A DNA stretch of 64,000 nucleotides from Candidatus Binatota bacterium (GCA_012960245.1 DUBO01000038.1:10627-74626); one strand, 5' to 3'; positions 54,974-64,000 are shown, counted from the first letter of the stretch. Notes: generated by a model from the sequence alone, not told the origin. Numbers and translations are program-made.

Positions 54974-55029
54974 GCGTCGGGGGCCGGTGGGGTGTTGCCG
55001 GCCGGTGGGGAAAACGGGTAGCCGCCAGC

Positions 55030-55728
55030 CTACTGGCACACGCAGAATGCCGCCACTGGATCGCCTACGAACGTGCACTGCTTGGTGGTATCGGCGCAAT
55101 CGCCACCGCAGGTGGGAGCGCCTGACTGTTCGCAGGGATCGCTCTGCTCGGGCTCGCATCGGCAAGCCAGGGTACCGGCTATATTCGTGCACACGTCGGT
55201 CGGATTGGGGCAGTCGCCGTTACAGGTCGGGGCACCGGACTGTTCGCAGGGGACCGGCTGGTCGAACACCTTCCAGGCGGGCGTGCACATCTTGGTGGTC
55301 CTGAAACCGGCGATCTCGCGCTGGCCAAACTGGTCAACCACGTCCTGGGCACTGGGCGGCATCGCGCCAGTAGGATCCTTGGGGCAGCGGATCTTGTAGC
55401 AGAGAAAGTCGTTGGTCAGGTCCTGGCCAACCACGTCCTCGTGCGGGGCATCGCGCTTGTTGTTGGGCTGCATGATGCGATCTTTATTGACCGGCAGGCA
55501 GAACTCCTTGCTCTTGACCATTATCCTGCAGCCGGCTTCGCTCGGGTACATGGATTGGTCAGAGTTTGTGATGAGATCGGCTACCGCCGAGTACCTGTGA
55601 GAATCCTTGATCTTGTAGCACTTCAGGTGGTCGTTGACGTTCTGGGCCTGCGAGATTGCGGGCAGCGCCAGGGCCAGGAAAGCTACGGTTACTGTTGCTG
55701 TTACTATTGCTGTGATTGCCTTGTTCAT
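55030..55728 (-). CDS. Small secreted Cys-rich protein with C-terminal 2x 6-Cys module (PCEQSGAPTCxGDC...C.C) shared with the BNR protein
   Basis: Signal peptide MNKAITAIVTATVTVAFLALALPAISQA. KCYKIKD / LCYKIRCPKDP motifs. C-terminal tandem Cys module. Confidence 0.7.
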   Translation of the reverse strand: MNKAITAIVTATVTVAFLALALPAISQAQNVNDHLKCYKIKDSHRYSAVADLITNSDQSMYPSEAGCRIMVKSKEFCLPVNKDRIMQPNNKRDAPHEDVVGQDLTNDFLCYKIRCPKDPTGAMPPSAQDVVDQFGQREIAGFRTTKMCTPAWKVFDQPVPCEQSGAPTCNGDCPNPTDVCTNIAGTLACRCEPEQSDPCEQSGAPTCGGDCADTTKQCTFVGDPVAAFCVCQ

Positions 55729-55773
55729 GTCGATTCCTCCGTCGGCGGCGCGGGTTGAGCCCGCGCCGGCATG

Positions 55774-55789
55774 CCCCTGTCAAAGCAAC
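55774..55789 (-). promoter_or_regulatory. Sigma-54 promoter, exact consensus TGGCAC-agcag-TTGC (read on minus strand)
   Basis: Plus strand gcaactgctgtgccaa. 45 bp upstream of start 55728. Confidence 0.6.
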
Positions 55790-55828
55790 TGCTGTGCCAA
55801 TCGGTAACGGCCCGGAAACCCTGTAAAC

Positions 55829-55865
55829 ACGGGCTCTAACCGGGGCTGTGCTGCTAACGTAAGTT
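55829..55865. promoter_or_regulatory. Copy A of the recurrent upstream element: CCGGGGCTGTG-N12-GTTAGCGCTCGAAG, with internal GCTAAC-gtaa-GTTAGC palindrome
   Basis: Identical 10-nt and 14-nt blocks to copy B at 62218-62253. ~65 bp upstream of the -24 box. Confidence 0.55.
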
Positions 55866-55930
55866 AGCGCTCGAAGGGCGGTAGCGTGTGGGTGGGTTTG
55901 CAGCGGAGCACCCGGATGCGCCGCCGGTCT

Positions 55931-56986
55931 CTAGAGCGAGAAAATACCCAGTAGCAGGCCACAACCGGTGAGAGCCATCAGGGGGCCATCACAGGTATGC
56001 GGGCTCACGGCTTCGGCAAGCGTCAGCCCAAGGGGAATAACGGCCACCGCCACCAGGAATTGTTCGGGCGTAAACACCGGGACGGCCGACAGGAACTGGT
56101 ATCCACACAGCACCACGACCGAAACGATAAACACCGTCGCACTACCCTCCAGGGATCGTACGAACTGCCCACTCCAGATACGCCCGTTGTGCCACAGGGC
56201 CTTGGTGCGGTACTTGTGCTTGCCGAAACGGATACCCACCGGTTCGGCGAGGCCGTCACCAAATTCGTTTATCAGTTGCGGCACGAGAACGATGAAGGGA
56301 TTGGCGACCAGCGCCATGAAAGGCAGGTATACGGCGAAACGAAACACGTCCTCGAGCATGTCATAACGCAGGGAATATGGCCTATCCTCCAGCCGATCCC
56401 ACGAAACGAACGCGTACCGGAACAACGCGACCCGGCGCCGAACGCGATGATACTCGAGCCCTATGGTTTTCAACTGGCCGAGGCAGAACAGGAACGCTAT
56501 GTCGATAATCACCTTGTCGCCGCTTACTATGAGAAGCGGGATCACGAAGGCCGAGAGCTTCTTTACGGGGCGAAGAATCAGTTTGCGGACGTAATTGATC
56601 CGAACTCGGTGCCGCATCACGAGCCATGATGCGAAGAGTTTACCCGCGACTTCGACTACGATCGAGATGCCAAAAAAAGCCATTGCCGCCGTGTTAAGTG
56701 CCGGGAGTACGCCGACAGCCCCCAGTACCCCAAGCGTGGCGGCTACAGCCAGGTAAAACGGACCAAGTACGGCTACGAATCGGTCCTCGCCCCTCCAGTC
56801 ATAGGCCTCGTTCTCCAGCCCGTAAGGATCGGCATACAGGCGGGCGAAATAGCCGTCCCGCGACTGGTGTACTGTCTCCTGGGATACCGGCCCTTCCCGC
56901 GTGATCGCCACCGCGGCCAAAGCGGCCCCCGGATACAGTGCCGCGTCGTTACCGGTCGGCTCGTTGGCAGTGCTGGTCCTTGTCAT
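55931..56986 (-). CDS. Integral membrane protein, CTP-dependent polyprenol/phytol-kinase-like (dolichol kinase/CDS superfamily)
   Basis: C-terminal FGDGLAEPVGIRFGKHKY...LEGSATVFIVS resembles the DGxAxxxGxxxGxxK...EGSxxxF motif of the CTP_transf_1/phytol-kinase family. ~7 TM. Confidence 0.45.
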   Translation of the reverse strand: MTRTSTANEPTGNDAALYPGAALAAVAITREGPVSQETVHQSRDGYFARLYADPYGLENEAYDWRGEDRFVAVLGPFYLAVAATLGVLGAVGVLPALNTAAMAFFGISIVVEVAGKLFASWLVMRHRVRINYVRKLILRPVKKLSAFVIPLLIVSGDKVIIDIAFLFCLGQLKTIGLEYHRVRRRVALFRYAFVSWDRLEDRPYSLRYDMLEDVFRFAVYLPFMALVANPFIVLVPQLINEFGDGLAEPVGIRFGKHKYRTKALWHNGRIWSGQFVRSLEGSATVFIVSVVVLCGYQFLSAVPVFTPEQFLVAVAVIPLGLTLAEAVSPHTCDGPLMALTGCGLLLGIFSL

Positions 56987-57074
56987 AACTTGCTCCCCAC
57001 TGTCTTCTTGAACGACCCGATGCTGATGTCAGTCGGACCCAGACCCGCAACAGGACGAGCTCAATATACAAGTA

Positions 57075-57089
57075 CTGCAACTCGTGTGC
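57075..57089 (-). promoter_or_regulatory. Sigma-54 promoter, exact consensus TGGCAC-acgag-TTGC (minus strand)
   Basis: Plus strand gcaactcgtgtgcca. 89 bp upstream of start 56986. Confidence 0.6.
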
Positions 57090-57133
57090 CAGTAGGAAAT
57101 TGGCACAAAAACGGGCTCCCGCCGAGACCGGAT

Positions 57134-57153
57134 GCAAACCAGGGTTAGCCCTA
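57134..57153. promoter_or_regulatory. Copy D of the recurrent upstream element (aaaccaGGGTTAGCCctagg)
   Basis: Matches the aaacccaGGTTAGCGC core of copies B and C. 53 bp upstream of the -24 box. Confidence 0.4.
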
Positions 57154-57233
57154 GGAGGCCCGGACCGCCTTCCTGGCTTAGCACTGGCCGACGTGGAGGC
57201 GCCGCTTAGCGGGCCCAGCTGGAGGATAGAAAA

Positions 57234-57458
57234 ATGATAAAACTCTGTTTCTGCGTACACCGGTTGCCGTCGCTCACGCGCGAGCAGTTCCAGGATTACT
57301 GGCACTCGACCCACGCGGCGCTGTTAAAGCGCCACGCCGAGGTCCTCGGCACAGAACAGGCGCAGGCTGCCGTCGCAGAGTTGATCGAAGACGAGCATCG
57401 ATTTGCAGACCTGTCGCGCTCGCCCATATTCCTGGCCGAAGAACGGCAGATCCTGTAG
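57234..57458 (+). CDS. EthD/Dabb-like small alpha+beta-barrel protein (hypothetical)
   Basis: MIKLCFCVHRLPSLTREQFQDYWHSTHAAL resembles the EthD N-terminus. 74 aa. RBS ggagg. Confidence 0.45.
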   Translation: MIKLCFCVHRLPSLTREQFQDYWHSTHAALLKRHAEVLGTEQAQAAVAELIEDEHRFADLSRSPIFLAEERQIL

Positions 57459-57484
57459 CGGCCGGCGGTAAGGAGAAAATCACG

Positions 57485-58285
57485 ATGGACTACGAGCAGA
57501 TCACCTACGAAGTACGCGACCAGGTGGCACTGATCACGCTTGACCGGCCCGACAAGCTCAACGCGTGGACGCCACAGATGAGCGAGGAGCAGGCCCACGC
57601 CGTCGCGCGCGCCAACGCCGACAACGCTGTGGGTGCCATCGTCACGACCGGTGCCGGCCGCGGTTTTTGCGCTGGCGCCGACATGGGCGACACCTTCCAG
57701 TCGCGCATAGACGGTGTTGACCCCGGCCACAACACCCAGGACGGATCGGGAGGAATGCCCGCAGGCCTCGACTGGGTGGCGCTGGTGCGCGAGTCCAAGC
57801 CCATGATTGCCGCGGTCAACGGCGCGACCGTCGGCATCGGGCTTACCATGCTGCTGCCCTTCGACGTCATACTGGCGTCGGACAAGGCGCGCCTGGGCAT
57901 GGGCTTCATCAAGATGGGGCTGGTGCCCGAGCTGGCCAGCACCCATTTCCTGGTGCAGCGCATGGGCTTTGGCCGCGCATCGGAGATGTGCCTTACAGGT
58001 CGCCTTTACAAGGCCGACGAGGCACTGGAGGCCGGCCTGGTGGACCGGGTCGTGGCTCACGACGACCTCGTGGCCGCCGCCCTGCAACTGGCCGGCGAGA
58101 TCGCGGCCAACCCCGTGCCGCAGTTGCTCATGACCAAGCGGCTACTGACCGAAAACGGCAGCGCCACCGACCTCACCCTGGTGCAGGAGTCGGAGAGCGC
58201 CTTGCTGCGCGAGTGCTGGAAGACACCCGAGCACGCCGAGGCGGTGGCGGCTTTTATCGAGAAACGACCACCGCGTTTTCGCTAG
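57485..58285 (+). CDS. Enoyl-CoA hydratase/isomerase (crotonase) family protein
   Basis: ITLDRPDKLNAW ... GAGRGFCAGADM oxyanion-hole motifs. Confidence 0.85.
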   Translation: MDYEQITYEVRDQVALITLDRPDKLNAWTPQMSEEQAHAVARANADNAVGAIVTTGAGRGFCAGADMGDTFQSRIDGVDPGHNTQDGSGGMPAGLDWVALVRESKPMIAAVNGATVGIGLTMLLPFDVILASDKARLGMGFIKMGLVPELASTHFLVQRMGFGRASEMCLTGRLYKADEALEAGLVDRVVAHDDLVAAALQLAGEIAANPVPQLLMTKRLLTENGSATDLTLVQESESALLRECWKTPEHAEAVAAFIEKRPPRFR

Positions 58286-58342
58286 CCCGACCATCCACCA
58301 TTTTCAGACAAGGACGTCGTAAGAGACCCCGTCCAGCTGCAG

Positions 58343-61300
58343 CTACTGGTCCAGCTGGCGAACCCTGTGTATTACCGCTTCGATTGTCACCGGCACGGGA
58401 CAGTTAACAATATGCCGAGCGTCGCTTGGCGAATTCGGATGCTCAAAATCATAGTTGTCAGACCCCACATTTGGCGGTGGCGGGAATTCAAGGACTTCCA
58501 ATTTACCCTCGGCCCTGAGCCGCTGAATCTGCTTGACCCCTTTAAGGACCTCGCTCGCCGGCTCCTTCCAGTGAGCAAAACCGATGTGCCACATCGGACT
58601 GTAATCGTCCTCTGGCCTAAAGTAGGAGGGCACTCCCACCTGGCTGCCGAACGGGCCACCACCCAGGAATCCAAAACCGTCGCTTGGCGTCGGTGGATAG
58701 GTTGGATCTATCGGCGCTGGGGGCAGCGACTGGATCAGGGGAACTCCGACGCTTCCAAGGTTCTTATACATTGGTACATAGGGGACTCCCATCGCCCTTG
58801 CCGGACCAAATGGATAGGTGTCCAGGACTATGTAGTAGGGAAGATAATCACCTTCTCCCGCCCAAGCCTTGTGAAGCTTGAAGGTGATCGACGGATCTGG
58901 TCCGACCGTGTCCAGTGCCAGCACATGCCCCGATGCGTCCCTGTCACCCCAGAATTCACCGTTGTAAAAACAAGTCGAGTTGGGAGGTTCATCTGGAAAA
59001 CTGACACAACTCAGGTCAATCCGATTGTGATGCCATTCCTCGTCGCCCCACTTTGCAAACACGGCATTAACGATAACATCCTGCCCGTCAATCGTGACTC
59101 GACGCAAAGGCGAATACGTATTCAGGTCATCAACGTCTGGAATTAAATCCGGATTCTTGCAGGGTCTTCCCGAACCGGAATCGATACCATCAGACACCCT
59201 GCAAGCCGGCGAGGCCCATATCGGATTGGGCACGTTCCCGTAAAACGTCCAGTGACCCGTAACTGGATCAATGGTTGCATCCCCGGTAGCCGCTATTGGC
59301 GTGCCGGTTAATTTACCAGCCCAGGCCAGGCCCATTTCCTCGGCCAGGGCTTCGTCGCTGATGTCGTGCAGGAAGAACCATACGGGGGTCAGTACGCCGC
59401 CGTCGTCGTTCGTTCCCTGCATCAGCGGGAAGGTAATGGTACCGCGTTCGTTGGGCTGCGGGTCAAGGGCGTCGCCGAGCGGAATATCCCTTATGTCGTC
59501 TAACTCGCCGATTACCGCCCCATCCACCCAGATATCCACAGGGTCAACCTGCGGTCCGTATTCGCCAACAGCGTCTCCGGTTCTGTATGTAGGCAGTGCG
59601 TGGGTGTCCACGTAGCTTACCCCGTCCCACGAGGGGATAGGTGTCGGCATGACCAGGGTCTGCCCCGGATGCTCAATATCCCAGCGCAACAGCATGGCGT
59701 GGTCCTCGTGCTGCGTGTTGTGGCAATGCTCCATGAAGGTGCCCGCGAACTCCCGGAAGCGAAGTGCGATCTCCACCATCACCCCACTGTCGGCCTGTGG
59801 TCCGAGCCGGTACACGTCCTTGCGAGCCCACTTTTCCCACTCGGGCGGCTCCTGGCCGTCACGTCTCAGTATGATCCCCTCCTCAAAGTGGATGTGTATC
59901 GGGTGGCTCCAGGTTCCGCTGTTGAGAAGGCGCCAGACCTCCAGCCCACCGGAATTTTTCTCGGGAGCCGCAGATAGACGGCGGGGGTCCATTCCGAACC
60001 CCTTGCCGCCATCGGTCTCTATGACCCAGGGGCGATCGTCGGTGGGCTGCCTCTCAAATTCAAAGGTGCGGTGAAGAGCCGCGTCCAGCTCTGCCTGCGC
60101 GGGCATCTGGATGGGGATCATCTTCTGCCCGCCGGCCACGTAGTCCATTGGATCAAGACTGTTGTCGACCCCGGCGTACTCGGTAACACGGAACTCCATG
60201 AATTTACCTACAACCGGGTCACCGTCGATCCAGCGGTCGGCAATGCCATCGGGGGGAACCGTGTCGTCGATGGTAACCGGTGCGTAGGCTCCGCTTACGA
60301 TATCGGCCAGGGGAATCACTTCGTCGGTGACTTGCCCGTTCTTGTGTTGCAGCAGGTTGACCAGGTACAGCTTGTCACCCGGTTCGAAGTTGGCAAAGTC
60401 GATGATGACGTCGTAGCGTTCGGCTATGCCGAGGGTCGGCAGCTCGCCGTTACTGAACTCCACGGCGTGCTCCATGATGTTGCCGTCGTTGGCAACCATG
60501 TGGAACGGGACCGGGTTGCCGGCCTCGTCGACCAGCGCCAGCTTGAAGTAGCGAGATACCGAGGCATTCAGGACGCGGAAGCGGTACCGGCGGGCACGAA
60601 CGTCGAAGTAAGGCTTGTACAGCCAGTTAACGGTCATAACGTCGCCGAGAAAGCCTTTCTGGTTGAAGGGGTTAAAACACAACTGCCCGTCACCATCAAA
60701 GGCTTTCTCTGCCAGCATCAGGTTGACGTCGTAATCGCGGTTGCCCCAGGGCAGCGCGGATCCACTGGGCAACCTCAGGTTGATGCCGTCATTGACGGAT
60801 TCGTTGCCGCGATCGAGTGAACTGTAATAGTTCATCATCGCGGCGCTGCCCTTGTAGACGTTCTGGGCAGTGAAATCGAGCATGTGATCGTGGAACCAGT
60901 GGGTGCTCATGGTCTCGTGCCAGTCGCCCTTGATCCGCTTTATGCCTCCGTTGCCCATGGGCATCCCTGCCCTTTTATCCCTCTTATTCGTATTGATGGA
61001 GTCGTGTCCTGCGAGCACCATCGGCCACCTGTAGTCGTAGAACTGGCCGGGAAAGAAAAACGCGTTGGCGAACCCGTCGCTCTCAGCCGGGTTATGGCCG
61101 TTGTGCTCGTGGGTGGTCAGCGTGTGAACACCGAAACCACGGTTCTCGGCGACGTCGATCGGTAACGCATTGTAGTGGCGCATTACCAGGGGCTCGCCAT
61201 AACGCGCGGTGAGCAGCTTGGGGGGAAAAGTTCCGTCGAAAGTCCACACCGCGTCCGGATCCTGCAAAGGCATGCTGGCATGAAACCGGACCTCGATTCC

Positions 61301-62083
61301 CGACGTCGTGCCATCGGATCCAGCTGGTTCCGCGGTTGAATGATACAGTCCTGTGGGCCCGAATTCACCGTGCCTGTAGCGATGCCTCTGAGCTCTATCA
61401 CGCAGGCCGCGATTCTCCCGACCACCGGTTGTCGCAGTCTTGAAGTAAACCCTGGGCTTGAACTCATCCCACCGCTGGTGTGCCCATCCTTCCCCAGGCG
61501 GTCGTCCTTCGATCGGGGGGTCGTCAAGATCGCGGCCCAACCATGATTCAATCTTCGACTCCCACGGATTCTCGTCCGAGGTATTCGCCTTGCGCTTGGG
61601 GATAGGCCATACCCGGGCTTTCAAAAACTTATCCAGTTTTACTGAACGCGGATAAGCCTGGGGGTTGGCTGGTTTGGGTAGCCGTTTATGTTTGGGGCTA
61701 TCTTCGGCATGAATTCCACGCTTTGTGGTCCCAAATTCTTCCAATCGCAACATTTTCTGGCTGAAAGGCGTTGCGCCAAAAAGCGGACTCGGTGGGTAAT
61801 CGGTTGGCACGTTGAAGGTGCCAGAATCCCGCTGGGCAGTCACCGGTATGGCATTCTGCTCGCGGGTGTCTTCGGGGGTTCCAGTCAAGCCCCCCTCAAA
61901 ACTCCCCTCGTTTGCCTCGGGCAAACCCTCTGGCAGATCTCCCACGATCGGACCCGCACACGCCGAAGGATCTCCGGAAGGCGGGCACTGGGCATGCAGC
62001 GTCGGTGGGAAAAAACACGCAATGGCCAGAAAAAATAACGAACAATACAACCCTGGAAAACAATACCTACTAACTCGTCTCAT
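58343..62083 (-). CDS. Large secreted multicopper oxidase (1246 aa) with ~480-aa C-terminal extension beyond the T1 copper site
   Basis: Signal peptide. Four Cu-ligand motifs in order: HTLTTHEHNGH, WFHDHMLD, HPIHIHFEEG, HCHNTQHEDHAM(L). Confidence 0.85.
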   Translation of the reverse strand: MRRVSRYCFPGLYCSLFFLAIACFFPPTLHAQCPPSGDPSACAGPIVGDLPEGLPEANEGSFEGGLTGTPEDTREQNAIPVTAQRDSGTFNVPTDYPPSPLFGATPFSQKMLRLEEFGTTKRGIHAEDSPKHKRLPKPANPQAYPRSVKLDKFLKARVWPIPKRKANTSDENPWESKIESWLGRDLDDPPIEGRPPGEGWAHQRWDEFKPRVYFKTATTGGRENRGLRDRAQRHRYRHGEFGPTGLYHSTAEPAGSDGTTSGIEVRFHASMPLQDPDAVWTFDGTFPPKLLTARYGEPLVMRHYNALPIDVAENRGFGVHTLTTHEHNGHNPAESDGFANAFFFPGQFYDYRWPMVLAGHDSINTNKRDKRAGMPMGNGGIKRIKGDWHETMSTHWFHDHMLDFTAQNVYKGSAAMMNYYSSLDRGNESVNDGINLRLPSGSALPWGNRDYDVNLMLAEKAFDGDGQLCFNPFNQKGFLGDVMTVNWLYKPYFDVRARRYRFRVLNASVSRYFKLALVDEAGNPVPFHMVANDGNIMEHAVEFSNGELPTLGIAERYDVIIDFANFEPGDKLYLVNLLQHKNGQVTDEVIPLADIVSGAYAPVTIDDTVPPDGIADRWIDGDPVVGKFMEFRVTEYAGVDNSLDPMDYVAGGQKMIPIQMPAQAELDAALHRTFEFERQPTDDRPWVIETDGGKGFGMDPRRLSAAPEKNSGGLEVWRLLNSGTWSHPIHIHFEEGIILRRDGQEPPEWEKWARKDVYRLGPQADSGVMVEIALRFREFAGTFMEHCHNTQHEDHAMLLRWDIEHPGQTLVMPTPIPSWDGVSYVDTHALPTYRTGDAVGEYGPQVDPVDIWVDGAVIGELDDIRDIPLGDALDPQPNERGTITFPLMQGTNDDGGVLTPVWFFLHDISDEALAEEMGLAWAGKLTGTPIAATGDATIDPVTGHWTFYGNVPNPIWASPACRVSDGIDSGSGRPCKNPDLIPDVDDLNTYSPLRRVTIDGQDVIVNAVFAKWGDEEWHHNRIDLSCVSFPDEPPNSTCFYNGEFWGDRDASGHVLALDTVGPDPSITFKLHKAWAGEGDYLPYYIVLDTYPFGPARAMGVPYVPMYKNLGSVGVPLIQSLPPAPIDPTYPPTPSDGFGFLGGGPFGSQVGVPSYFRPEDDYSPMWHIGFAHWKEPASEVLKGVKQIQRLRAEGKLEVLEFPPPPNVGSDNYDFEHPNSPSDARHIVNCPVPVTIEAVIHRVRQLDQ

Positions 62084-62161
62084 AATTTATCCCCCTGCAG
62101 AGATGAAAAAAAACATGGCTAACTTAACTAAAATCCCCGTCAAGGGTGTAATCCAGAACAA

Positions 62162-62176
62162 GCAACTTGTGTACCA
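62162..62176 (-). promoter_or_regulatory. Sigma-54-like promoter TGGtAC-acaag-TTGC (minus strand) for the multicopper oxidase
   Basis: Plus strand gcaacttgtgtacca. GG-N10-GC preserved, one mismatch in the -24 box. 79 bp upstream of start 62083. Confidence 0.45.
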
Positions 62177-62217
62177 AGCTGAAAATGCCTGGCCCCACAG
62201 TCAATACAGGATGAGGT

Positions 62218-62253
62218 CGGGGCTGTGTTGTAAACCCAGGTTAGCGCTCGAAG
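62218..62253. promoter_or_regulatory. Copy B of the recurrent upstream element: TCGGGGCTGTG-N12-GTTAGCGCTCGAAG
   Basis: Identical 10-nt and 14-nt blocks to copy A. 64 bp upstream of the -24 box. Confidence 0.55.
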
Positions 62254-62398
62254 TCAAAAAGTCTGCACTCGAAGGTCAAAGGTCTGCAGATAACCGCAGC
62301 AAGGATGCAACAGCTTGCGCAGTGGCGTCGCAAGCCGGCAGCATAAAGAAAAATTGTAGAGATCCTCAACAGTGGCCGGTTGGGTGCCTACGCCCACA

Positions 62399-62475
62399 TG
62401 GGGGGGGATTCGCCCTTACGTGGGCGGTCAGCGCTGGATCCCCCCCCCCGAATGGGTTTGTGTGTGGGGGGGGGG
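62399..62475. repeat. Three long homopolymer tracts (G9, C10, G10) within 77 bp in the Sco-fusion/MCO intergenic region
   Basis: catGGGGGGGGG(62399-62407) ... gatCCCCCCCCCC(62440-62449) ... tgtgtGGGGGGGGGG(62466-62475). Confidence 0.8.
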
Positions 62476-62499
62476 CTGACGACCTCTGCGTCCTCCCGG

Positions 62500-63810
62500 T
62501 TATTTTACCTTCACCGGGACAGCCACGACCTGTGTTCTCCCGGATTCAAAGGAAAGCGTCATATTGATGGTCTGACCTGCTTCCGCTCGCCGGACCGGTT
62601 CCATGAGCATAAGATGCTTGCCTCCCGGGGCAAGCTTCGCCTGCCCCCCCGGGGGCACCAGGAGTTGTTCGACCTCCCTCATTCTCATCAACCCGTCGAC
62701 AACCGCCATTTCGTGCACCTCTATGCGACCGAAGGCCGGGGACTCTACCTTGACCAAGGAAACAGCCTCCTGGCCGACGTTAACAAGGGTCATATATCCG
62801 GCGTTAGCCGGGGCCCTGGCGTCTGCCTCGCGCACCCAGGCATCCATGACCGCCAGCACGTCTCCTTCCGGCTCGGCGTCGGCAACCGGAGCTGCCTCCT
62901 CCCGCAGCTCGCCCATCGAAGCAAGGTAGACAAGCAGGTCATCGGCCTCCTGCCTGTTCAGCCGCATATTCGGCATGACCAGATTCCCCCACTCTTCGAG
63001 CATGGCTACCGCGATCGGGTCCTCGTCAGCAATCATTTTGTCTGGTGCCTGCAGCCATCCAAGAAGCCACTGGCGATCGCGGCGCCCTGTTACTCCCATG
63101 AGATCCGGCCCGAGTGCGCCGGGTCGGGTCTCGCCGTCGACCGTGTGACAAACTGAACAACGAGTCCGAAACAACTGCTCTCCCGCCGACATGGGCCGCA
63201 GCTCAGGCGCCTTGTGATAACTCTGCTTGGAAAGAGGAGGGCACTTGGGGCACAGGCCATTCAGCTGAGACGCAAGAATGTAGGGGTTTTCTGTCGGCGC
63301 TCGCTTCATCCACTGCCCGGTAGCCTGGTTGCCGATCATCATGTTCAAGTTGTGATCGCCACTTCCGTCCTGGATCTCCTCCACGTACAGGCCGAGCTTT
63401 CTACGTAGCAGCGTGATGTCTTCTTCGTTACCGGTGAAGAAATCCCAGTGCGCACCGAATCTATCCTTGTACTCGCTCAGTATCGGCGGCTGGTCGTGTT
63501 CAGGGTCGATAGAGATCGAATAAAAAAAGATATCGTCGCCAATTCGATCACCCAGTATGTCCTGGACCTTTTTCAGCTGGGCCGTCTCAAGGGGGCAACT
63601 GTCCGGACAGCTGGTGAAGATAAAGTTAACCGCGACGATCTTTCCCTCGATAAGGTCGTCGAAAAACCGCACCTGTTCTCCGTCCTGGTTGGTCAGTTCG
63701 ACGTTTGGAAAATAGTTCCTGCCCCATGACGCGGCCACGGCAGACGAATAGAAAGCCAGCACCAAGGGCAGCACGATAAACCACCGGCAAAATTTCAAGC
63801 TACTTCTCAC
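62500..63810 (-). CDS. Sco1/SenC - cytochrome c - PCu(A)C fusion copper-chaperone protein, membrane-anchored
   Basis: N-terminal TM. FIFTSCPDSCP (Sco CxxxC). CSVCH haem-c motif. C-terminal GGKHLMLMEP (PCuAC H/M motif). Start placed at GTG 63810 (RBS aaagggg), since the upstream ORF extension lies in AT-rich promoter-like sequence. Confidence 0.75.
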   Translation of the reverse strand: MRSSLKFCRWFIVLPLVLAFYSSAVAASWGRNYFPNVELTNQDGEQVRFFDDLIEGKIVAVNFIFTSCPDSCPLETAQLKKVQDILGDRIGDDIFFYSISIDPEHDQPPILSEYKDRFGAHWDFFTGNEEDITLLRRKLGLYVEEIQDGSGDHNLNMMIGNQATGQWMKRAPTENPYILASQLNGLCPKCPPLSKQSYHKAPELRPMSAGEQLFRTRCSVCHTVDGETRPGALGPDLMGVTGRRDRQWLLGWLQAPDKMIADEDPIAVAMLEEWGNLVMPNMRLNRQEADDLLVYLASMGELREEAAPVADAEPEGDVLAVMDAWVREADARAPANAGYMTLVNVGQEAVSLVKVESPAFGRIEVHEMAVVDGLMRMREVEQLLVPPGGQAKLAPGGKHLMLMEPVRRAEAGQTINMTLSFESGRTQVVAVPVKVK

Positions 63811-64000
63811 GCGAGAAGAGATACCCCTTTTTCGATTCAATACAACTAGTAGACTACATTTATCAGCGAACCGGACCATCGCCGGCACACCGTCCGATTG
63901 GCACGGAAATCAGGGCAACGAGCCCTGGTACGTCAAAGATGCGGCCGGCAATTTTTCCGAGTTTTTCTCGGGCATGGATCGCATCCTCGACGACGACGGC

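Follow-up and report, generated by a model that had tools for sequence, protein, structure and literature searches.

A long-form multicopper oxidase of the McoA family and its Sco-cytochrome c-PCuAC partner in a Candidatus Binatota genome

A pair of genes located between positions 58,343 and 63,810 of a 64,000-nucleotide stretch of DNA from a Candidatus Binatota bacterium (GCA_012960245.1 DUBO01000038.1:10627-74626; hereafter the window, with positions counted from its first letter) encodes a multicopper oxidase of 1246 amino acids (aa) and a protein in which a Sco domain, a c-type cytochrome domain and a PCuAC domain are fused in one polypeptide. Both genes, as well as the domains and regulatory elements located below by coordinates in the window, lie on the minus strand. 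The reading preferred here, with a probability of about 0.6, is that the two products form a long-form McoA system, that is, a three-domain oxidase exported by the Sec pathway and served by a dedicated periplasmic copper-handling protein, with Mn(II) oxidation as the activity assigned by homology. Hundreds of full-length homologues were recovered for the oxidase and for the fusion protein alike, and therefore both genes are real.

The oxidase gene (58343..62083, defined by open reading frame (ORF) call) is placed in the McoA family because its product shares 51% identity with the McoA ortholog P0289 of Pseudomonas putida over residues 5-878 (~870 residues), the N-terminal extension included. 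The orthology of P0289 to the McoA of P. putida GB-1 (PputGB1_2665) was established through the operon structure of another P. putida strain, CP039371, in which the oxidase gene is followed by SCO1-SenC/cytochrome c, GGDEF/EAL and phosphonate-binding-protein genes, the same order as that published for the mcoA operon of GB-1 (PMC11409713, Table 4). Genetic work on GB-1 has identified two multicopper Mn(II) oxidases, of which McoA is one: Mn(II) oxidation proceeds with MnxG or McoA alone, is lost in a double knockout and is kept by the mnxG deletion strain, where only McoA remains (PMC11930936). McoA of GB-1 resembles the oxidase of the window in its N-terminal extension, its three-domain core, its identical copper motifs, an adjacent gene for a Sco-cytochrome c protein (52% identity, as measured between aa 22-313 of the partner described here and the protein encoded after P. 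putida mcoA) and a sigma-54 promoter ~80-90 nt before the ATG (PMC11930936). It differs in its C-terminus, which consists of Cadherin/Big_9 Ig-like repeats in Pseudomonas whereas it is a DUF7482 module here, and the window locus is further distinguished by the PCuAC domain added to the partner, the inverted gene order with separate transcription units and the host, a marine Candidatus Binatota metagenome-assembled genome (MAG). Unlike in GB-1, neither MnxS/MnxR regulators nor MopA are visible near the window locus. In P. putida CP039371, the mcoA ortholog is directly preceded (L087 1-7662) by a type I secretion system and by a giant, MopA-like gene of the animal-haem-peroxidase/haemolysin-type Ca-binding class, so that genes for two of the three Mn oxidase types known so far are neighbours in that strain.

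The catalytic part of the oxidase is a predicted three-domain multicopper oxidase core (aa 271-805; 59669..61273), recognized by Pfam as Cu-oxidase_3 (aa 274-353, a weak match) and Cu-oxidase_2 (aa 711-802) and by ligand conservation. It contains the four copper motifs HEH (325-327), HDH (398-400), HPIHIH (727-732) and HCHNTQHEDHAM (786-797), and the twelve ligands H325, H327, H398, H400, H727, H730, H732, H786, C787, H788, H792 and M797 are invariant in an alignment of 20 homologues. The initial annotation of this DNA had described a 1246-aa oxidase with all four motifs, as found here, and ~480 residues beyond the type 1 (T1) copper site; the last T1 ligand is M797 and the measured remainder is ~450 residues. 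Solved structures align with residues ~320-805 alone (the best being bilirubin oxidase and CotA, E=5.6e-35), so the core appears to be that of an ordinary three-domain multicopper oxidase. The AlphaFold2 (AF2) model of aa 36-840, covering the N-terminal extension and the core, was of low confidence (pLDDT 43.7), and the three-domain architecture is consequently read from sequence matches. The core is preceded by a family-specific N-terminal extension (aa 32-270, ~240 aa; 61274..61990), delimited from homologue alignments and without any match in the Pfam scan, which bears a conserved motif, e.g., PP(A/I)EGRPPGxGW(S/A)HQRW, and is kept in the long and the short forms of the family, Pseudomonas McoA included. 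The full-length homologues of the oxidase form more than 120 database clusters with 63-73% identity and the whole architecture kept; they come mainly from marine metagenomes and from MAGs and isolates of Thalassomonas, Polaribacter, Alteromonadaceae and Thiogranum. The gene itself is labelled 'hypothetical protein' of Candidatus Binatota by NCBI, and its relatives are labelled generically as multicopper oxidases.

The initial annotation had read the enzyme as an oxidiser of Mn(II) or Fe(II) on the grounds that its size class matched MnxG, MoxA and MofA. The manganese part of that reading stands through the homology with McoA; the size argument was rejected, the extra length being made of the N-terminal extension and DUF7482 and not of cupredoxin domains, and the oxidase does not resemble MnxG, MofA or MoxA. 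MoxA has ~480 aa, and MnxG has six cupredoxin domains and, in Bacillus, acts in a complex with the MnxE/F subunits. The six-domain architecture of MnxG was not found here: the oxidase has a single set of four copper motifs, and its Pfam cupredoxin matches fall within aa 274-802 only. As for MnxE/F-like subunits, ORF calls returned no small co-oriented genes between the fusion gene and the oxidase gene. MnxG of Bacillus and Pseudomonas is nevertheless similar in being a large multicopper oxidase implicated in Mn(II) oxidation, and genes with SCO1/SenC and cytochrome c domains are also part of the mnxG operon of Pseudomonas (PMC11409713, Table 4); it differs from the oxidase described here, which has three cupredoxin domains and owes its length to non-cupredoxin extensions.

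Among the alternatives to the McoA reading, which by weight run from an organic-substrate laccase through a redox-only partner and a copper/iron detoxification pair to an incidental cytochrome oxidase assembly factor, the first takes the oxidase for a general enzyme of the laccase/bilirubin oxidase type whose substrates would be organic (e.g., phenolics, pigments, and humic or dissolved organic matter); in Pseudomonas, Mn would then be oxidised as a side activity of the family, and the partner would still serve in copper loading. It is considered unlikely. Bilirubin oxidases and CotA are indeed the best solved relatives, in NCBIfam the oxidase partially matches CueO and the o-aminophenol oxidase PhsA (both far below the cut-offs), catabolic genes abound in the window (sulfatase, LLM monooxygenase, enoyl-CoA hydratase), and bilirubin oxidase, CotA and CueO share with the oxidase the core fold class, the four copper motifs and the axial Met at T1. 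However, the similarity to these enzymes is partial, since only part of the core is covered, with low identity, and they have ~500 aa without extensions whereas the oxidase of the window has 240 N-terminal and 440 C-terminal residues more. The identity with McoA, on the other hand, runs through the family-specific extension, and the genetics of GB-1 tie the family to Mn(II) oxidation (PMC11930936).

Regarding export, sequence inspection places a Sec-type signal peptide at aa 1-31 of the oxidase (...TLHA|QC; 61991..62083), and the twin-arginine consensus S/T-R-R-x-F-L-K is absent from its N-terminus (MRRVSRYCFPG...). Among the signals of 117 homologues a lipobox-like Cys is present in 31 and any RRx-hydrophobic match in only 9. 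The predicted export route of the family is a Sec or lipoprotein signal and not the twin-arginine translocation (Tat) pathway.

The partner gene (62500..63810; ORF, Pfam and homologues) encodes 436 aa when it is read from the GTG at 63810, an internal GTG of a frame that remains open to 63888 (62500..63888, at most 462 aa). Public records of the gene give 424, 432 or 459 aa, and its start is ambiguous because these annotations use differing starts. Pfam finds SCO1-SenC at 64-183, Cytochrom_C at 235-325 and PCuAC at 347-453. The Sco1/SenC thioredoxin-like domain (63340..63699; PF02630, E=3e-22) carries C-PDS-C and a distal His, and its copper-site residues C68, C72 and H153 (436-aa numbering) are invariant in 32 homologues, as are the haem-c residues C218, C221, H222 and M279 of the class I c-type cytochrome domain (62914..63186; PF00034), which has CSVCH and an axial Met in MPNM. 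The PCuAC Cu(I)-chaperone domain (62530..62850; PF04314, E=1.7e-33) presents HEM...M...HLM with the exact spacing of the H(M)x10Mx21HxM site, and H366, M368, M377, H399 and M401 are conserved in all domain-bearing homologues. The triple fusion proposed in the initial annotation is therefore borne out, both by the domains found and by cofactor ligands that are invariant or nearly so; its description as membrane-anchored was not established, since the N-terminal sequence, in which charged residues are followed by 18 hydrophobic ones and then by AVA-AS, is equally compatible with an anchor and with a Sec signal that is cleaved off.

The partner matches at E=2.9e-28 the PDB entry 2L4D ('SCO1/SenC family protein/cytochrome c'), which is the solved cytochrome c domain of its ortholog in P. 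putida KT2440. Banci et al. are said to have proposed in 2011 that the haem domain of this KT2440 Sco-cytochrome c protein feeds electrons to the Sco site. The Pseudomonas protein is orthologous to the Sco and cytochrome c portion of the fusion and differs from it by having no PCuAC, and its link to McoA is new as far as the searchable literature shows. Other solved chaperone relatives of the fusion protein are 2K6W, 9REZ, 3ZJA and 4WBR. The chaperone families and ligand motifs are those of the PCuAC-to-Sco relay of CuA assembly (Thermus, Bradyrhizobium, Rhodobacter) and of ECuC/Sco in Streptomyces; unlike in these relays, the chaperones are fused here with a cytochrome c in one polypeptide, and the genomic tie is to a multicopper oxidase and not to a haem-copper oxidase.

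The evidence that joins the two proteins comes from a scan of one genome per species, which gave 80 related loci, all with the N-terminal extension and the core conserved. Counting only loci with enough flanking sequence, a Sco-cytochrome c gene was found directly downstream of the oxidase gene and on the same strand in 29/29 long-form and 30/36 short-form loci, i.e., adjacency in about 60/66 informative loci overall. The paired loci come from at least eight phyla (Pseudomonadota, Planctomycetota, Acidobacteriota, Myxococcota, Verrucomicrobiota, Bacteroidota, Desulfobacterota and Nitrospirota), and because the pairing is conserved across phyla, incidental adjacency is very unlikely and was rejected; the functional link between oxidase and partner that had been proposed earlier is strongly supported by it. 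The initial annotation had placed the fusion gene directly upstream in the same orientation, and this is true in the window organism, where a gap of 416 bp separates the two genes; the order is unique to it, the partner gene lying 100-500 bp downstream of the oxidase gene in every other related locus. With a PCuAC-domain hidden Markov model (HMM), for which distant stand-alone PCuAC genes were detected as positive controls, the domain was present in 27/30 long-form loci (the window organism counted) versus 0/36 short-form loci, a coupling of PCuAC to DUF7482 with Fisher p = 1.7e-15 among loci that are not phylogenetically independent.

A second alternative accepts the pair and denies the copper donation: the partner would be a haem-fed thiol-disulfide oxidoreductase that repairs the oxidase or protects it from Mn(III/IV) damage, or an electron link to the respiratory chain. 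Throughout the partner family Sco is fused to the cytochrome c domain, as such a role would have it, and short-form systems function without PCuAC. Against it, the copper ligands of Sco are invariant, the distal His included, and the repeated addition of PCuAC, whether by fusion or through a gene next door, brings in a dedicated Cu(I) chaperone, which indicates copper traffic. A purely redox partner is thus regarded as rather improbable, somewhat more so than the laccase-type enzyme.

It is less probable still that the pair serves periplasmic copper or iron detoxification, with a CueO-like cuprous/ferrous oxidase to which Cu(I) is buffered or delivered as substrate and not as cofactor. CueO is a distant relative of the oxidase, and the exact protein is found on a contig from the Guaymas Basin, a metal-rich setting. 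Both PCuAC and Sco bind Cu(I), as would be expected of such a pair. CueO is itself exported by Tat, whereas the oxidase of the window has neither a Tat signal nor a CueO-like methionine-rich insert. In addition, no cop, cus or cueR genes occur beside the pair in public contigs, and the Pseudomonas member is tied to Mn and not to Cu resistance (PMC11409713, PMC11930936). As for the fusion protein being an ordinary CuA/CuB assembly factor for haem-copper oxidases that lies next to the oxidase by chance, the assembly of cytochrome oxidase is the best-known role of Sco and PCuAC (PMC3817396) and no promoter is common to the two genes here, but the adjacency across phyla survives even the gene-order inversion of the window and no cytochrome oxidase genes were found beside the pair in the window or in public contigs, which leaves this explanation with hardly any probability.

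The C-terminal module that distinguishes the long form (aa 806-1246, ~440 aa; 58346..59668) is DUF7482 (PF24298), with an internal repeat and the motifs YSP(L/M) and VNCP. Its AF2 model (pLDDT 83, pTM 0.85) is mainly beta and internally repeated; Foldseek gave no PDB match to it, cupredoxins included (best E=1), and a literature search for DUF7482 returned no papers. Among the related loci the module is confined to the long-form group (31/80, plus the window organism), and the remaining loci end shortly after the core or bear other C-terminal modules. The short-form member of Pseudomonas (L083) has P. putida relatives of ~1131 aa with the Cadherin/Big_9 repeats mentioned above. Several Planctomycetota short-form members (L038-L086, e.g., L061, L064, L066, L079) have 450-860 extra C-terminal residues. 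The short forms carry such varied additions that the C-terminus is evidently a modular slot in the McoA family. An exhaustive HMMER search with the C-terminal module showed DUF7482 to be rare (122 representative matches). One of its other carriers is a second, unrelated oxidase of 2091 aa, with multiple cupredoxin domains, a membrane N-terminus and a C-terminal DUF7482, downstream of whose gene SCO1-SenC and PCuAC are encoded separately (L088 6001-13498); a fragmentary relative of that locus (L092 5001-9577) has Sco, PCuAC and cytochrome c genes downstream. Sco, PCuAC and cytochrome c modules therefore accompany DUF7482 oxidases in a second lineage as well. DUF7482 also occurs alone (~400 aa), or after a plastocyanin-like motif, YYCTIHPYM, in a 1155-aa N/Q/S-rich protein (P0472, P0462).

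The coupling to PCuAC is the sole lead on the function of DUF7482. A proposal of fairly low probability is that DUF7482 and PCuAC co-evolved and that DUF7482 is a docking or copper-acceptor module for a Sco/PCuAC/cytochrome c relay that metallates giant Sec-exported multicopper oxidases. If this were true, a dedicated maturation pathway for multicopper oxidases would have been put together independently in no fewer than two lineages of unrelated oxidases, and the abundant long-form McoA proteins would become candidates for Mn oxidases at work in hydrothermal plumes and the deep ocean.

According to the model proposed for the long-form McoA system, an enhancer-binding protein would bind the GCTAAC palindrome described below and activate sigma-54 transcription of the oxidase gene and of two neighbouring genes. 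The oxidase would be exported unfolded by Sec and would acquire its four coppers outside the cytoplasm; Sec substrates cross the membrane unfolded, so copper loading would have to be extracytoplasmic, which gives a rationale for a dedicated donor. The PCuAC domain of the partner would capture Cu(I) and hand it to the CxxxC/His site of Sco, the cytochrome c domain would hold thiols and copper reduced, as proposed for the solved P. putida ortholog, and the partner would then load or maintain the oxidase, with DUF7482, which co-occurs with PCuAC, as a possible docking or acceptor surface. A role of the fusion protein as a Cu(I) relay for metallation of the oxidase is plausible. The mature enzyme would use O2 to oxidise an extracytoplasmic one-electron substrate, most probably Mn(II) to Mn(III/IV) as suggested by the homology with P. 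putida McoA.

Several observations weigh against this model. The evidence for McoA is genetic and no report of the purified enzyme was found in the literature, the Mn substrate proposed for the long-form members would follow from homology, and the nearest solved enzymes are broad-substrate oxidases. No experiment was found that shows any Sco or PCuAC protein metallating a multicopper oxidase. In three long-form loci the partner stops after its cytochrome c domain and lacks PCuAC, and stand-alone DUF7482 proteins have neighbours unrelated to copper, so that DUF7482 is not always tied to copper chaperones. In the window, the partner gene lies upstream, strong hairpins stand in the 416 bp between the two genes, and the sigma-54/palindrome promoter is absent from the fusion gene; because of this gap and of the missing promoter, the oxidase and its partner need not be co-expressed here. 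Finally, a search for GAFTGA/Walker-type signatures in every frame detected no enhancer-binding protein gene in the 64-kb window, and the sigma-54 activator may be encoded outside it.

In Pseudomonas, the pairing of McoA with a Sco gene and its control by sigma-54 had been described before. Within the literature that could be searched, novelty lies in the DUF7482-bearing long form, in the triple Sco-cytochrome c-PCuAC fusion, in the strict coupling between PCuAC and DUF7482 with its recurrence in a second oxidase lineage, and in the breadth of the McoA family over phyla and marine metagenomes. The enzymes behind oceanic Mn(II) oxidation are poorly resolved, and the long-form family is a concrete candidate that is abundant, occurs in many phyla and is linked, through homology, to a Mn oxidase with genetic validation; enzymatic Mn oxidation in the Guaymas Basin plume was reportedly found to be very fast by Dick et al. 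in 2009. The locus also raises the general question of how Sec-exported multicopper oxidases obtain their four coppers, to which a conserved Sco-cytochrome c partner, with PCuAC coupled to DUF7482, offers a testable answer. If the assignments of Mn oxidation and of maturation were both to fail, the locus would still be a well-defined, ordinary pair of an oxidase and a chaperone.

Regarding transcription, a sigma-54-type -24/-12 element, TGGTACACAAGTTGC (62162..62176; 9/10 match to TGGCAC-N5-TTGC), is located 78 nt before the ATG of the oxidase gene, and a pattern search placed a palindrome-like element, GCTAACCTGGGTTTAC (62230..62245), a candidate site for an enhancer-binding protein, 63 nt from the -24. 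The promoter motif TGGYACANNNGTTGC has 4 matches in the window versus 0.05 expected, three of which precede the oxidase gene and the genes for two proteins of 351 and 232 aa, and the window contains no more than three copies of GCTAAC-N3-6-GTTWRC (0.08 expected), all of them upstream of -24/-12 elements. The mcoA ortholog of P. putida has a perfect TGGCACACCCGTTGC ~85 nt before its ATG, the mcoA promoter of GB-1 has sigma-54 and integration host factor (IHF) sites (PMC11930936), and a sigma-54 element of at least 9/10 was found upstream of 9/70 family loci versus 0.6 expected. The predicted sigma-54 promoter and upstream element of the initial annotation thus gain support, since the elements recur at two neighbouring genes and agree with the published mcoA promoter.

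From the fusion gene to the oxidase gene, the 416-bp gap contains two hairpins, a tandem repeat, GCTAACCTGGGTTTAC and TGGTACACAAGTTGC, in that order. The hairpins are G+C-rich, lie just after the stop codon of the fusion gene (62385..62476; fold -62.7 kcal/mol, z = -2.4) and consist of a C10/G10 stem with a 16-nt loop followed by CGCCCAC/GTGGGCG, with no T-run; they are a possible transcript end or stabiliser. Neither a sigma-70 promoter nor a canonical terminator was found between the two genes, and Rfam detected no RNA family anywhere in the window. The tandem element, seen by sequence inspection, is an imperfect 21-nt direct repeat, TGCAGAC(C/TT)TTTGAC(C)TTCGAG x2 (62247..62288), the last copy of which supplies the TTCGAG of TTCGAGCGCTAAC, an element that also occurs in the promoter of the 232-aa gene and is exactly matched at 62240-62252 and 55863-55875 only.

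The two neighbouring genes are probably co-regulated with the oxidase gene, and the three look like a small local regulon, as judged from their promoter elements. At all three the palindrome has the form GCTAAC-N4-GTTWRC. The first (55931-56986) encodes a 351-aa multi-pass membrane protein and is preceded by a perfect sigma-54 element (57077-57091) located 52 nt from a GCTAAC palindrome (57134-57149); it is conserved beside the oxidase only in contigs of the window organism. The second (55030-55728) encodes a 232-aa secreted Cys-rich protein with a duplicated C-terminal motif, PCEQSGAPTC(N/G)GDC...; both its sigma-54 element (55785-55799) and its palindrome, GCTAACTTACGTTAGC (55853-55868), are perfect, and their spacing is 63 nt. 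Neither protein has a Pfam or NCBIfam match, or relatives near the oxidase in other taxa.

The composition of the locus departs from that of its surroundings. The G+C content of positions 55000-64000 is 59% versus 65% in the rest of the window, and the oxidase and fusion genes have 58%, with 67-69% at third codon positions (GC3), whereas flanking genes (ECH, LLM) have ~65% and a GC3 of 84-85%. The nearest relatives of the oxidase and fusion genes belong to other phyla. Together with the unique gene order, the low GC and GC3 and these relatives suggest, although they do not prove, that the oxidase-partner locus was acquired horizontally. In NCBI, the proteins of the window are found in Candidatus Binatota MAGs (formerly 'Deltaproteobacteria bacterium'), and the oxidase gene occurs in identical form on a Guaymas Basin metagenome contig.

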